Source: Escherichia coli
GTDB lineage: Bacteria; Pseudomonadota; Gammaproteobacteria; Enterobacterales; Enterobacteriaceae
Assembly: GCF_045037415.1 (NCBI RefSeq)
Contig: NZ_CP173438.1
DNA length: 64,000 nucleotides
Reading direction: 5' to 3' (one strand)
Each line of letters starts with the position of its first letter. Position 1 is the stretch's first letter. Positions 24,001 through 30,000 of this stretch are shown one piece after another. The position numbers were made by a program.

Positions 24001-27000
24001 ACGCGGTCACCTGCGGCAACGGTTTTCCGGCTGACGGTAGTGCGGACCTTTTTACCCCGGAGAACACCGGAAAGTCCCATAACCGCCATGAGGCGCGCCA
24101 CTGTACATCTGGCCACCCTGATTCCTTCCCGTAACAACTGACGCCAGACTTTACGCACACCGTACACCTGATGATTTTCATCGTATACGCGCTGTATCTC
24201 TCTCTTCAGCCAGTCATCGCGCTGTGCATGTGCACTGCGTTTATCAGGATGATGTCGCTGTTGCTGACAGTGGTAATACGTTGACGGGGCAATATGCAGT
24301 TCACTGCATACCGGTCTGACCCCGTACTGCTCACGCAGCTTATCCAGCAGTGCCATCACTTTTTCCAGAGGCGGTCGAACTCCGCCTTCGCAAAATAAGC
24401 GGAAGCCTGGCGAAGGATATTGTTACTGCGGCGCAGTTCACGATTTTCACGTTCCAGCTCTTTCAGACGCTGACGTTCAGCGGTGGTAAGCCCACCATCA
24501 CCGCCTCCGGTATCCCGCTCATACTGGCGAACCCAGACACGCAGAGTCTCCGGCGTACAGCTAGTCTTTGGAGCAATGGAACAAATTGCCGCCCATTGTG
24601 AGTCATATTCGCCCTGACTTTCCAGAACCATACGAACTGCCCGTTGACGGACTTCGGGGGAAAAACGTGTTTTTTTAGTCATCCTGTTTACCTCTTTCTC
24701 AGGAAGTTTAGTCTCCAGGATTTCCGGGGCGGTTCAACTCCGTTGCCTCATCAGTTGTGGTCTACAGCAACATCCACCATTAAACCGCCAACACAGACTG
24801 TTCCGCGTTAAACGAGTGCGGCGGTACTTTCAGCCCGGAAACCTGGGGAGCGCGCTCGCAGGCATCAGTCTGTTATTTGTTGAAGGGGTTATTTCCTGCT
24901 CTTGTGAATGGAGTTACCGAGATAATGATTGGGTCGAAAGACTCGGCACGCCCTTTTTTTTATGTAAATTCCATAGGCTTAAGCGATGTAAAACGTTTAC
25001 ATTTGCTGGAGTCTTTTTATTGACAGATAGTTAACATCTTTGTGATAAACATCACATATGCAAATTTTCATAATAACGAAAACAAAATACAGAATAACAC
25101 TTCCTCCCTCGATATATTACGTTACCCTAACGATAAAATCGGGCGAGTAACAAATATGAAAGTTTATAATTTTGATAAAGTTATTTCACGCGACGGAACC
25201 TATAGCGCTAAATATAATAACAAGGGGCATGACATCATTCCTCTGTCTGTAGCTGATATGGATATTCCTGTAGCTGATTTTATAGTTTCTGAATTATCTG
25301 TCGCAAATCAGAAAGGTATCTACGGTTATACATTATTAAGTGATGACTGGCAGCAAGTGGCAGCACAGTGGTATCAACGCCATTACTCGTGGAAGGTCAA
25401 CCCTGAACACATTGTTTTTTGCCCACGGGTAGTACAGGCCGTCTCATTATTTATCCAGAACTTTACCCAACCGGGAGATGCTATTGTCAGCCTGACACCA
25501 GCCTATCATCCTATTAGTCATGCAGTTGAAGTCAACCATCGAGTATTGCTGGAAAGTGCGTTACTTTATCGTGACCACCACTATGAAATAGACTTTGCGG
25601 ATCTCGAAGATAAGTTTAAAATGGCTTGTTGTTTCATTCTAATATCGCCGCATAATCCAACAGGAACAATCTGGTCAGAAGACAATCTAAGGAAAATAGC
25701 TTCATTAGCAGAAAAATATAATATTTTTATTATTTCTGATGATGTTCATGCAGACTTCAACTTCACCCAAAAACAACATCAAACAATTTCTTCTATAAGC
25801 TCATACGTTGCACAAAACTCGTTTATTTGTACATCTCCAGCAAAAACTTTTAATATGGCCGGACTTGAAATCGCAAATATTGTTATTGCTAACGATAAAT
25901 ATCGTGAACAGTTTAAATTAGCTCTTATTGCAGCAGGTATCCATAATCCTGGTTATTTCTCTGTTCCTGCATTTCTCTGTGCTTACCGCCATGGCGATTC
26001 TTGGTTAGCAGCATTAAAAGATTATTTGGTCGAAAACAGGAGCTGGGTTCAATCATTCTGCCAAGCTCATTTTCCAGACTGGTTTGTCGCCTCTGGTGGC
26101 GGAACTTACATGTTGTGGATCGACTACCGGGCAATGAACATCAGCGAAGAGCAACTACGCCATTGGTTTGTCTCGCTCGCAGGTGTTGAGATGAGCTGGG
26201 GATCAGATTTTGGCGATGAAGGACTTGGTTTTTTCCGTGTGAACATAGCCACGCCGAGAAGCAATCTTACACAAGCATTTGAACGGATTTATCAGAGCAT
26301 CCCCTTCACTACAGGAGTTTCCCTTCATGAATAATAACAATACTCCAAGATCCCCAACTCTGGTGGAATCATTATTACCAATACTAGCGATGATACTATT
26401 GCTGGGATTTGGTTATGCGGCATTCGATCTGCCACCTGAGCCATTAATGGTTCTTTCAACCGTCATTGCTGCACTGTTAGTTAAGCGGTTGGGGTATGGC
26501 TACAATGCAATCCTTGAATCAATATCGCAGAAAATCGCTAAAACAATGCCTGCTCTGCTAATTTTGATCAGCGTGGGCCTCCTGATTGGGACATGGATGA
26601 TAGGCGGTACTATTCCGCTGATGATTTATTACGGCCTTAATCTGATAAATCCTTCCATGATCTATGTGACGGCCCTGCTCGTTACTGCCATCGTTTCTGT
26701 ATGCACAGGGACATCCTGGGGATCCGCAGGCACCGTCGGTGTTGCGTTTATGGGTGTGGCTATCGGAATGGAGGCTAATCTGGCAGCAACTGCAGGCGCT
26801 ATTGTGGCAGGGGCTTACTTCGGGGACAAACTGTCTCCCCTTTCTGGCGATACTAACTTAGCCGCAATGGCAGCCCAGATAGATCTCTATGAACACATCG
26901 CTCATTTACTTTATACAACCCTTCCTTCATTGATACTGTCAGCCTTTGTTATGACGCTCTATGGGATGAATAGCGAGCTCGGCGGCTCAACCATTCCCGA

Positions 27001-30000
27001 AAAAATTCAGCTAATCACTGAAGGATTAAAAGGAATTTATCATTTTAATTTATTGTTATTGCTACCCATTGCCATTGTCCTGTACGGTTCGATTACCAAG
27101 AAACCAACCATTCCAATTATGCTTGTTTCGGCACTGGTAGCCATGATCAACGCCAGCGTTATTCAGGGGTTCGCACTACACGACATTGTTAAAAGTGCAG
27201 TAGACGGATTTAACGTTTCAATGCTTACCGATAAAGATGTTAATCCGCTATTAGGTAATTTGTTAAACCGCGGTGGCATGAACTCGATGATGAGTACGTT
27301 GCTTATTTGTTTCTGCGCCCTTTCATTTGCGGGAACATTAGCCTTGAGCGGCGCTTTAGAAGTCATCGTCCATAATCTGCTCAAATTAGTTCATTCCACA
27401 GGAACCATGATTCTTGCGACTATTGCCTGTGGTTTAACAATGATTAGCGTGACCTGTAATGGTCAGATATCAATCCTGATTCCGATTGAAATGCTACGAA
27501 GTGCTTATATTGAGCGCGGCCTACATCCAAAAAATCTGGCAAGGACTGTAGAAGACTCTGCCACCATATTTGAACCAATTCTGCCCTGGACTGCCGCGGG
27601 TGCCTACATGGCAGGTACACTTGGCGTTGCTACATTAAGCTATCTTCCGTGGGCTATTCTCTGCTGGAGTGGCATTTTCTTTGCGACGCTGTGGGGGTTC
27701 ACAGGCTTTGGTATCGCTCGACTGTCCAAAGAAAAGCAGCAACAGCTCATGATGGAAACCATAAATGAAAGCAAATAGAATCGGCCTGATTAATATATTT
27801 GATAGTAATTAACCACGTCTACACGCCGCCCCCGATTGCGGCGTGATGTCTGTTACTCTCGCTTCAGCCGTTTGGAATTGCACAACCACAGGGTGATCAC
27901 CAGTAGCAGGAACGCCGCAGTACATCCATAGACGCTTTATGATCGACGAGGATTAATCACACAACCGTGGTGATCCCGATATAGACAATAGTCACCGAAT
28001 TTCAGGCCAGCGAACTTAAGACGGGGTTTATCTTTGGAATCGGAGGAGTCTTGAGATTCAGCAAGGTGGCCTTTGAATTCATGTTCCTACTGATCGAACC
28101 CAGTGCTGACGAGTCAGTACAGATTTTTATTGACGTTGATTGTCGGTAAGGATAGCCGTTGCAGTTAATCGTTCAGGTAAATGTTTATTCGACAAAGCAT
28201 TGAACTGCCCGTTGACGGACTTCGGGGGAAAAAAGTGTTTTTTTAGTCATCCTGTTTGCCTCTTTCTCAGGGAGTTTAGTCTCCAGGATTTCTGGAGCGG
28301 TTAACTTACAATTATCTGTTCACTAATGACTACTCTAAAAAGTTGTATCAATTTAAGTGATAGTCTTAATACTAGTTTTTAGACTAGTCATTGGAGAACA
28401 GATGATTGATGTCTTAGGACCGGAGAAACGCAGACGGCGTACTACACAGGAAAAGATCGCTATTGTTCAGCAGAGCTTTGAACCGGGAATGACGGTCTCC
28501 CTTGTTGCCCGGCAACATGATGTAGCAGCCAGTTACTTCTCTGGCGCAAGCAATACCAGGAGGGAAGTCTTACTGCGGTGACTGCTGGGGAACAGATCGT
28601 TCCTGCCTCTGAACTTGCTGCAGCCATAAGGCAGATTAAAGAACGCCAGCGCCTGCCCGGAACAAAACGATGGAAAATGAACTCATTAAAGAAGCCGTTG
28701 AATATGGACATGCAAAAAGTGGATAGCGCACGCTCCCTTATTGCCGGGGTGATGCACTGGGCGGTCACTACCGGCGGCTTCAACAGTGAAACAGTACAGG
28801 ACGTCATGCCAGGAGCGGTGGAACGCCGCTTCGGCAACGAGCTTCCGGCGTCTCCAGTGGAGTGGCTGACAGATAATGGTTCATGCTACCGGGCTAATGA
28901 AACACGCCAGTTCGCTCGGATGTTGGGACTTGAATCGAAGAACACGGCGGTGCGGAGTCCGGAGAGTAACAGAATAGCAGAGAGCTTCGTGAAAACGATA
29001 AAGCGTGACTACATCGTTTTCATGCCCAAGCCAGACCCTGTACACGATTCTGTGTGAAACAACGGGGAGCAGGTCATCGCTTCCCAACCCGTTATTTCAG
29101 CGTGCCGAACTGTTTGTCTTTCAGTGCATATAGTCGGCCGAACTCAGCATAGGGCTCTCCCGTTTCAGCCGCGTGCCGGGTTTTAGCATCCAGAAGGTCG
29201 GGTAAAGGGATCCTATGATTCAGTGAGTGGTAAAGATCATAACCACTGACACAGATAACCCGCTTCCCTTTACCAAAAGCCGTCAGGCCTTCAGGCGTAA
29301 ACCCCATCCAACTGATAAAAACACCGCGTGTCCAGGTTGCCTTGGTACTGAGCTTTCCTTCAAATACATGGAGGTCGGCAGCCGACGTTCTTTTCTGATG
29401 CCACTTTGCCTCCATCAGGTAAAATTCATCATTCAGTCGGAAACTTCCGTCAATCTGTTCGCCTGTATTTCGGAAAGACGAACGAGGAGCAAGCTTAAAG
29501 ATACTGAACAGTTCAGCAAGCCAGGCTTCAAACCGAAAACCACGTGGATGTGGCGGCAGAGATTTCATCTCGTTCATTTCAGCGATAAGTGAATGCCAGT
29601 CAACACCATGCCATGCCTGGACAGGCTTAACGCCTTTGGCTTCATCGGTGTCAGCGTTTTCTAAGCGGGAAATCAGTGCAAGATAGTCATTACGGCTTTG
29701 TTCAGCCTGTTCAGGCATGGATTCCGTTTTATACTGCCAGAGCGCACCAAGAACCCGCAGAGCGGTTCTCACGATCAACCTGTTTCAGCAAGCATCTAAC
29801 TCGTTTGGCTTTTGACGTCCCCTCTTTCTGATAACGTTCATCATCAATATCAATGTTCAATTCTTCATCGAAAAAAGCAGACAAGGTGCGGTTAGAGAAA
29901 TCCAGTATCCAGCCAGGATCGCTCTCGAACACAATATTAAACAGCCTCAAATCCTGCATTTTAAGTTTCACGCCTACCTCCTTTTTTCACAGTATAACGG

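Follow-up and report, generated by a model that had tools for sequence, protein, structure and literature searches.

A two-gene cassette of Escherichia coli, encoding a pyridoxal phosphate (PLP)-dependent beta-lyase of the PatB/MalY family and a secondary transporter of the NhaC family, is predicted on solid grounds of operator and gene context to belong to the xylose regulon controlled by XylR and the cAMP receptor protein (CRP). The cassette lies in a 64,000-nucleotide stretch of contig NZ_CP173438.1 (assembly GCF_045037415.1), here called the window, with the lyase gene at 25156..26334 (+) and the transporter gene at 26327..27778 (+). The conclusions on the cassette as a unit, its regulon, and its Citrobacter-like donor are held jointly with high confidence. 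Its function is a more tentative matter. The best explanation of the whole is that the unit imports and cleaves a xylose-bearing amino acid under XylR/CRP control, a reading that may be correct and is put forward with caution.

A CRP box, TGTGATAAACATCACA, is found at 25041..25056 (+) as a core match. It is the sole perfect copy of TGTGA-N6-TCACA in the window, where 0.07 copies are expected. It is followed at 25063..25098 (+) by a XylR-type operator, detected by position weight matrix (PWM) and by alignment, whose hexamers CATAAT and CAGAAT are spaced 21 bp apart in the same layout as in the E. coli xylA, xylF, and xylE promoters. The PWM, trained on eight promoters from bona fide xyl loci only (leave-one-out scores of 18.8-35.0), gives this operator 31.3 bits, as against 16.6 for the runner-up site in the window and a maximum of 16.0 over 20 shuffled windows. 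By the same matrix, E. coli PxylE, which is outside the training set, scores 26.4 bits, and four other stand-alone copies of the gene pair score 21.0-29.6 bits.

The upstream regions of 11 taxa, once aligned, share one conserved 60-bp block, of which the window version is TTGTGATaaacATCACAtatgcAAATTTTCATAATaacGAAAACAAAATacaGAATAAC; the rest is unalignable. In a MAFFT alignment, the E. coli PxylA and PxylF operators fall in register with this block. A CRP box and a XylR-type operator precede all gammaproteobacterial copies of the pair, the E. coli copy included, and the CRP core in the orthologous promoters is either exact or has one mismatch. Cross-species homology starts precisely at the CRP box (25038-25042) and extends to about the stop codon of nhaC; therefore, the conserved mobile unit consists of promoter, lyase, and transporter. 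The regulators that would drive the cassette are expected to be the XylR and CRP of the host; xylA is present in 5,409 of the 5,426 complete E. coli genomes. The lyase starts at the annotated ATG at 25156, which is conserved across species. A start at GTG 25042, given in the sequence-only reading that preceded this analysis, has to be corrected, for this codon lies inside the CRP box and the 38 additional codons (114 nt) are promoter DNA. In one E. coli strain (L093), the promoter is interrupted by ISKpn26, and the annotation gives the lyase as an extended, fused open reading frame (ORF) of 489 aa; the insertion probably uncouples the lyase from XylR/CRP. No riboswitch or leader was found upstream of the pair at the E. 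coli, Paenibacillus, and Vibrio loci.

The pairing of the two genes is strict. A protein search recovers lyase relatives of at most 74% identity in Klebsiella, Serratia, Pluralibacter, and Proteus, of ~48% in Pasteurellaceae, and of ~45% in Paenibacillus, the exceptions being truncated E. coli fragments at 96-99% (P0001 and P0063). A scan of genome contigs, supplemented by exact-protein look-ups, adds ~10 close relatives and 70 distant PatB homologues among the matches listed. In all 17 of the species-level contexts listed in which the lyase has at least 44% identity, a NhaC orthologue of 62-97% identity lies directly downstream, and the identities of the two proteins co-vary: 94% (lyase) and 97% (NhaC) in Citrobacter, 72% and 87% in K. 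oxytoca, 67% and 86% in Serratia, 64% and 82% in Proteus, 48% and 72% in Pasteurella, and ~45% and ~63% in Paenibacillus. Among the ~70 listed PatB homologues of at most 37% identity, none has an adjacent NhaC gene save at two Vibrio loci, where the order is reversed.

Among the matches listed, six taxa have the pair within, or adjoining, xylAB or xylFGH. In Serratia marcescens and Proteus terrae, xylR is divergent from lyase-nhaC-xylA-xylB, with only 10-12 bp between nhaC and xylA; therefore, these genes make up a single operon, and the sole xyl promoter in it lies ahead of the lyase. A third arrangement (GCA_000307305.1) places xylR-xylH-xylG-xylF opposite the same lyase-nhaC-xylA-xylB series. 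In Zophobihabitans, xylR-xylB-xylA is divergent from lyase-nhaC, and in Pasteurella multocida xylB-xylA is divergent from lyase-nhaC-xylFGH-xylR. Cricetibacter shares the divergent xylB-xylA and lyase-nhaC, with xylFGH ~3.7 kb further downstream. The stand-alone pairs listed, found in K. oxytoca, two metagenomic contigs, and Pluralibacter, are the closest relatives of the E. coli copy. Across Enterobacterales, Orbaceae, and Pasteurellaceae the cassette is preserved as one unit and normally belongs to a xylose operon.

The E. coli copy has a recognizable source. The segment 24949..27988 (+), which begins in the T-run of the malG terminator, continues through promoter, lyase, and nhaC, and ends inside the 3′ part of psiE, matches C. 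freundii NZ_CP151862.1 (L098, 11972-15021) at 91.1% nucleotide identity over 3,051 columns, with protein identities of 93.6% for the lyase and 96.9% for NhaC. A protein-similarity search for the donor gave at most 74%; the 91% match came from a search of plasmid DNA. In Citrobacter, malEFG is followed by the lyase, nhaC, and a convergent, intact psiE, beyond which lie yjbH and further genes up to pgi. In E. coli, malG is followed by xylE and the convergent psiE, such that xylE fills the same malG-psiE slot as the Citrobacter pair. The psiE remnant of the island (27853..27986, −), a donor-derived pseudogene that accompanies the pair on E. coli chromosomes and plasmids, has only ~79% nucleotide identity to the species' own psiE. 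Between the convergent nhaC and psiE lies a GC-rich, terminator-like hairpin (27822..27845, +) that Citrobacter has too. The promoter block is 92% conserved relative to Citrobacter, with an intact CRP core and one substitution in the 36-bp operator window. On these comparisons, the E. coli cassette was cut out of a Citrobacter-like chromosome. The replicon in question, labelled "plasmid unnamed2" (425 kb) of C. freundii MO_AK867, holds plsB, ubiCA, malEFGK-lamB-malM, pgi, and lysC despite its plasmid label and probably represents a piece of the chromosome, a chromid, or an assembly error.

The composition of the pair is also foreign. The lyase gene has a GC content of 40.5% (34.4% at third codon positions, GC3) and nhaC of 45.2%, compared to 49-54% for the neighboring dsd, cut, and IS3 genes and 47.4% for the whole window. 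The earlier description of the module as markedly AT-rich is fair for the lyase; nhaC is moderately so. In Citrobacter the pair is likewise AT-rich (40.4% and 47.0% GC, versus 52.5% for the locus), which argues that it is foreign there as well. Relative to the Citrobacter copy, the lyase has a dN/dS of 0.148 and nhaC one of 0.036, and both genes are therefore under purifying selection. The dS values are unequal across 25156-27778 (0.20 for the lyase and 0.48 for nhaC), which suggests a mosaic or recombinant history within the cassette.

Among the 5,426 complete E. coli genomes, 383 (7%) carry the pair, always at 99% identity or more, in 367 chromosomal and 41 plasmid places. The pair is intact in 374 of these 383 carriers at an identity of at least 99%, and independent plasmid copies differ at 9 of 2,623 positions. 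In PLSDB it occurs on 21 E. coli plasmids, mostly conjugative ones. The segment common to chromosomal and plasmid copies is exactly 24965-27985, and window positions 25000-27800 are 100% identical to the UTI89 chromosome.

The lyase is a 392-aa protein, annotated in RefSeq as "MalY/PatB family protein", with catalytic residue K230. It scores 370.7 bits against TIGR04350 (PatB family C-S lyase), a whole-protein hidden Markov model with a curated cut-off of 340, and matches PF00155 (aminotransferase class I/II) with E = 4.4e-35. Its nearest solved structures in a comparison with the PDB are C-S lyases, among them B. subtilis PatB, cystalysin, MalY, and Fusobacterium PatB1; the best matches are 4DGT (E = 2e-78), B. 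subtilis PatB (1e-72), and MalY 1D2F (E = 3.9e-56). An identity as an ordinary aminotransferase is rejected, as all aminotransferase models score at most 125 bits against cut-offs of 290-630. The protein is thus supported as a true PatB/MalY-family beta-lyase, to judge by these profile scores, and the family assignment of the sequence-only reading is borne out. K230, N167, D195, H198, Y117, and R361, which comprise the Schiff-base lysine, PLP-binding residues, and the arginine for the alpha-carboxylate, do not vary within the clade or among 70 outgroup sequences.

Eight substitutions or residues distinguish the lyase clade from the 70 outgroup PatB proteins: W31S, G91R, P94Q, E196D, Q238E, H263, P271, and E331, so that the clade carries S31, R91, Q94, D196, E238, and H263. 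Several of these map to the VADMD, SPGVxP, and partner-subunit loops, which in the S. hominis PatB form the hydrophobic pocket for the leaving group (PMC7385124). W31S, G91R, P94Q, and H263 are polar replacements in the segments corresponding to this pocket. The pocket residues were placed from the numbering of that paper, with a register uncertain by 1-2 residues, and the correspondence is claimed at the level of segments only. At that level, the changes in the clade would give its pocket a more polar or charged character, which would suit a leaving group that is hydrophilic.

The transporter (483 aa) is a member of the NhaC family, with 598 bits against TIGR00931 (cut-off 370) and E = 6e-59 for PF03553. 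It also scores 289 bits, below the model cut-off, against the model for ArcD, the arginine/ornithine antiporter of the same family. The lyase stop and the nhaC start share an 8-bp overlap (ATGAATAA) preceded by AGGAG, and the two genes are probably translationally coupled. The compact lyase-transporter unit first read from the DNA is therefore present, with coupling as its probable element. RefSeq names the transporter "Na+/H+ antiporter NhaC". The obligatory pairing with the lyase and the placement in xyl operons argue against Na+/H+ antiport, and this name is probably a misannotation of an importer of an organic substrate.

More distant loci extend the pattern beyond the Gammaproteobacteria. 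Five Paenibacillus species share the order YheO-type regulator, lyase, nhaC, and RidA, in which the regulator matches PF08348 and PF13309 and the RidA matches TIGR00004 with 172 bits. RidA is a 2-aminoacrylate deaminase that quenches 2-aminoacrylate. As it follows the Paenibacillus pair, alpha,beta-elimination is supported as the reaction in vivo, whatever the leaving group. Two Lachnospiraceae loci encode, in this order, an AraC regulator, a FucI-family isomerase (PF02952), a PatB-like lyase of 35% identity, an M42 aminopeptidase, and the xylulokinase XylB (TIGR01312, 590 bits, cut-off 380). One of these (L018, 2370-14714) also has a sugar ABC transporter, placed between isomerase and lyase, and a 648-aa protein; the other (L020) spans 5640-12747. 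XylA-II of the FucI family has been shown by experiment to be a xylose isomerase, and in clostridia its gene lies in a cluster with xylB (PMC2873477). Thus, from their gene content, a second and unrelated lineage would also place a PatB-type lyase, accompanied here by a peptidase, among the genes of a xylose-catabolic operon, and this operon looks like a pathway for a glycopeptide or a xylosyl-amino acid. In Vibrio (L079, 768-4566; L082, 6356-10158), a GalR/LacI-type regulator is followed by a NhaC homologue (48%) and a PatB-like lyase (31%).

It is hypothesized that the cassette responds to the host's XylR and CRP and is turned on by xylose in the absence of glucose. The transporter would import an alpha-amino acid with a xylose-containing leaving group on the beta-carbon, and the lyase would perform a PLP-dependent alpha,beta-elimination to yield D-xylose and 2-aminoacrylate, the latter decaying to pyruvate and NH4+. 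The xylose set free would feed forward as an inducer of XylR, as with lactose and allolactose, and would then be metabolized through XylA and XylB. That the substrate is an alpha-amino acid with a leaving group at the beta position is indicated by the lyase family, R361, and RidA. The best candidate, O-beta-D-xylosyl-L-serine, the stub of the proteoglycan linkage region, would answer three needs at once: a beta-leaving-group amino acid, an organic solute for the carrier, and a product for XylA, XylB, and XylR. As the substrate it is possible but doubtful. The broader proposal, that this PatB/MalY clade consists of O-glycosyl-serine beta-lyases which, with the NhaC importer, form an undescribed pathway under XylR for the salvage of O-xylosyl-L-serine, the end stub that remains once host proteoglycans are broken down, is more doubtful still.

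The linkage of proteoglycans is Xyl-O-Ser, and in a J Biochem paper of 1965 Tominaga et al. are said to have isolated O-xylosylserine from human urine. Free xylose is scarce in animal tissue; still, host-restricted Pasteurellaceae keep a xylose operon together with the pair. A. pleuropneumoniae regulates xylAFGH during lung infection (PMC3328466), which implies that the xyl regulon is differentially regulated in an animal host. A xylosyl-serine substrate would fit the hosts of the cassette (Pasteurellaceae, Proteus, Serratia, Klebsiella, and extraintestinal pathogenic E. coli (ExPEC)), and it would suit an island on which D-serine and choline catabolism are already combined.

The leading rival is the uptake and cleavage of a sulfur amino acid or cysteine S-conjugate (e.g., cystathionine, cystine, lanthionine, S-methylcysteine, or its sulfoxide) to a thiol or H2S, pyruvate, and ammonia, with XylR/CRP control as a mere co-regulation signal, for instance for dietary plant material, and no metabolic link to xylose. 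The sequence-only reading had proposed a substrate of this kind from the family name only, and as stated the proposal is not supported. The lyase does exceed the curated cut-off for PatB C-S lyases, its closest solved relatives are C-S lyases, an adjacent RidA fits any beta-elimination, and the Paenibacillus copies occur without xyl genes; an operon of importer and desulfidase has a precedent in the E. coli CyuPA (PMC9040844). However, a sulfur substrate leaves unexplained the co-transcription with xylAB or xylFGH in six taxa, the xylE slot in Citrobacter, the XylR operator of the stand-alone copies, and the clustering of a PatB-like lyase with XylA-II-like and XylB proteins and a peptidase in Lachnospiraceae. 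The polar or charged changes in the pocket also run counter to it, and the Firmicutes loci show no S-box, T-box, or other riboswitch for sulfur or amino acids ahead of the pair (the T-box and glycine riboswitch matches at L014 belong to other genes). A sulfur substrate is rated somewhat less likely than a xylosyl one: more of the data are accounted for by a beta-substituted amino acid that bears xylose, and none of them contradicts sulfur outright. A different pentose or xylose conjugate, such as a xylosylated Ser/Thr di- or tripeptide, an S-glycosyl cysteine, or a sugar-cysteine adduct, would draw on the same context as xylosyl-serine, and the M42 aminopeptidase and ABC transporter of Lachnospiraceae suggest glycopeptides as the form imported there. 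Yet the gammaproteobacterial cassette has no peptidase, the PatB family needs a free alpha-amino group and alpha-carboxylate (R361 is conserved), and we know of no natural S-xylosyl cysteine, which makes such conjugates improbable.

Two further explanations dispense with a catabolic role. The lyase could be a MalY-like regulator that sequesters a transcription activator, with NhaC a genuine Na+/H+ antiporter for ion balance during growth on xylose. MalY moonlights as an inhibitor of MalT (PMC10427625), and the 598-bit match is to an equivalog model. Against this stand the invariance of the catalytic residues across phyla, the linkage to RidA, which implies a real aminoacrylate flux, and the nature of XylR, which is an AraC/LacI-type regulator and not a STAND protein like MalT. 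The ArcD-model match indicates that the NhaC family is not confined to ions, and tight pairing across phyla with translational coupling is typical of a transporter and an enzyme that share a substrate. This explanation is very improbable. Least probable of all is that the E. coli pair is inert, a passenger caught between IS elements with no current function: IS debris and pseudogenes do surround it, and only 7% of genomes have it, but it is intact in nearly all carriers, independent plasmid copies included, its dN/dS values have stayed low since the split from Citrobacter, and its promoter block and CRP core are preserved.

Several points weigh against a xylose-bearing substrate and against the strength of its regulatory support. 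No xyl genes lie within 9 kb of the Paenibacillus copies, which have a YheO-type regulator instead, and the xylose link is therefore not universal. The conservation of the operator could be due in part to recent common descent rather than selection, and the promoters on which the PWM was trained are partly homologous to the island promoter. The assignment of pocket residues follows sequence register and not structure, and the NCBIfam equivalog model labels the transporter a Na+/H+ antiporter. It is gene context alone that points to xylosyl-serine. Characterized members of the PatB/MalY family cleave C-S bonds, and no report of this family eliminating a glycosyl (C-O) leaving group from the beta position was found in the searchable literature.

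On the island, the pair is flanked by IS material on both sides, as the sequence-only reading had noted. An intact IS3-family element (23427..24736, −) with 25-nt inverted repeats (23427-23451 and 24712-24736) lies to the left; its orfA and orfB are joined by a programmed −1 frameshift, and an ALIL frameshift pseudoknot (RF01497, 117.6 bits) is present at 24285-24401. To the right, a 101-nt solo IS3 end (28202..28302, +), 95% identical to 24634-24734 and in direct orientation with it, brackets the module together with the full IS3. It is followed by a frameshifted IS3-family transposase remnant (~28357..29057, +), recognized from its ORFs and annotated as frameshifted and incomplete at 28402-29036. 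In the plasmid copies, IS3 has the opposite orientation and abuts at 24965. An IS3 composite transposon is not demonstrated, with one intact IS3 and a 101-nt solo end in direct orientation. The flanks fit IS-mediated capture or recombination, and IS3-family elements now carry the cassette on ExPEC genomic islands and on large, mostly conjugative plasmids. Horizontal acquisition, already proposed from the DNA, is upheld by the patchy distribution, the location on plasmids and islands, the foreign composition, the IS3 brackets, and the Citrobacter-like source that the search for a donor lineage produced at 91% nucleotide identity; neither a core-like composition with a fixed locus in all E. coli nor an ordinary aminotransferase was found.

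A degraded ORF remnant, annotated as a frameshifted pseudogene, occupies 24772-24923 between the IS3 end and the Citrobacter-derived segment and lacks homology to the sequences upstream of the pair in other species. Elsewhere in E. coli (strains L091, 3211-6683; L092; L093), a group II intron (ltrA) splits the IS3 copy that lies left of the pair. On the island, the lyase-nhaC pair follows closely on two further catabolic modules for small molecules at ~5276-20770, namely dsdCXA (D-serine) and a cutCD choline-TMA-lyase microcompartment cluster, which comes with its own TetR, winged-helix, and FidL-like genes. Chromosomal pairs adjoin the cutCD cluster in several different E. coli islands (L091-L093). 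To the right of the IS debris are a restriction-endonuclease-like gene (29092-29970 in the UTI89 annotation) and an "inovirus Gp2 family" gene (30299-31030), and farther right lie CP4-57-type island genes with an antirestriction gene and the yeeU/cbtA toxin-antitoxin pair. At 61000-64000 the GC content drops to 30-35%, far below that of the lyase.

The existence of both genes is already known from RefSeq annotation. The regulon membership, the Citrobacter-like origin between malG and psiE, the cross-phylum cassette, and the glycosyl-serine hypothesis were not found in the searchable literature. Likewise, the pair, the nhaC-xyl link, and bacterial use of xylosyl-serine were not found in the full-text literature that can be searched, older papers on pentose regulons lying outside that search. 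Independent of any substrate claim, the predicted regulon membership, the Citrobacter-like source at the malG-psiE position (the xylE slot), and the probable misannotation of NhaC are solid. If the xylosyl-serine hypothesis is true, it would provide a new catabolic route and, for the PatB/MalY family, a new type of reaction in which PLP-dependent elimination removes a glycosyl group from serine. The hypothesis would then explain why xylose operons are kept in animal-restricted bacteria and why the cassette has been retained or acquired by host-restricted Pasteurellaceae, the uropathogens Proteus and Serratia, and some ExPEC lineages. The cassette would be a third module for host-derived small molecules on the island of uropathogenic E. 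coli (UPEC), beside dsdCXA and cutCD, and it would offer a lead on the physiological substrate of MalY-type lyases.

The cassette can be compared with several known systems. The E. coli xylE and xylFGH promoters share with it a CRP site and two XylR half-sites 21 bp apart. However, the xyl transporters belong to the MFS and ABC types, whereas the cassette couples a NhaC-family carrier (PF03553) to a PLP lyase; as no such lyase is needed for free xylose, the cassette differs from systems of free-xylose uptake. The NhaC family (TC 2.A.35), which includes Bacillus NhaC, MleN, and the streptococcal ArcD, has PF03553 and TIGR00931 in common with the transporter. In contrast to the classic NhaC antiporters, the context of the cassette argues for an organic, amino-acid-like substrate. 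The B. subtilis PatB and the S. hominis PatB (6QP3, 6QP1-2), which act as cystathionine or cysteine-thiol lyases, resemble the lyase in their fold-type I PLP architecture, TIGR04350 membership, catalytic lysine, carboxylate arginine, and PLP ligands. Unlike the lyase, the solved PatB members, which are of low identity to it, are not paired with NhaC or xyl genes, and the leaving-group pocket of the S. hominis enzyme is hydrophobic (PMC7385124), whereas the corresponding segments of the cassette clade are polar or charged.

The clostridial xylA-II/xylB cluster (Gu et al. 2010, PMC2873477) shares the FucI-family isomerase and XylB with the two Lachnospiraceae loci, which differ from it by an additional PatB-like lyase and M42 aminopeptidase, and in L018 also by an ABC transporter; no description of such an arrangement was found in PMC2873477. 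The E. coli CyuPA (PMC9040844) likewise combines a cysteine importer and an amino-acid-degrading lyase, a desulfidase, in one inducible operon that leads to pyruvate and ammonia, but its protein families are unrelated, its regulator is a different one, and it has no sugar link.

Another parallel in design is the E. coli malI-malX-malY system, which has a lyase of the same family, a transporter gene and a lyase gene together, and a sugar-type regulator. Its transporter is in contrast a phosphotransferase system (PTS) EIICB protein, its gene order is reversed, and its regulator, MalI, is of the LacI type. MalY has a documented second role in binding MalT, whereas the cassette clade carries its eight specific substitutions, W31S, G91R, and P94Q among them. 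To our knowledge, the inducer and the substrate of malI-malXY have remained unknown for decades. The Vibrio layout of a GalR/LacI-like regulator, nhaC, and lyase bridges the two systems, with the PTS replaced by NhaC. By analogy, other operons that place a transporter and a MalY-like lyase under a sugar regulator, i.e., malI-malXY, the Vibrio unit, and the Lachnospiraceae cluster, may act on glycosylated amino acids.

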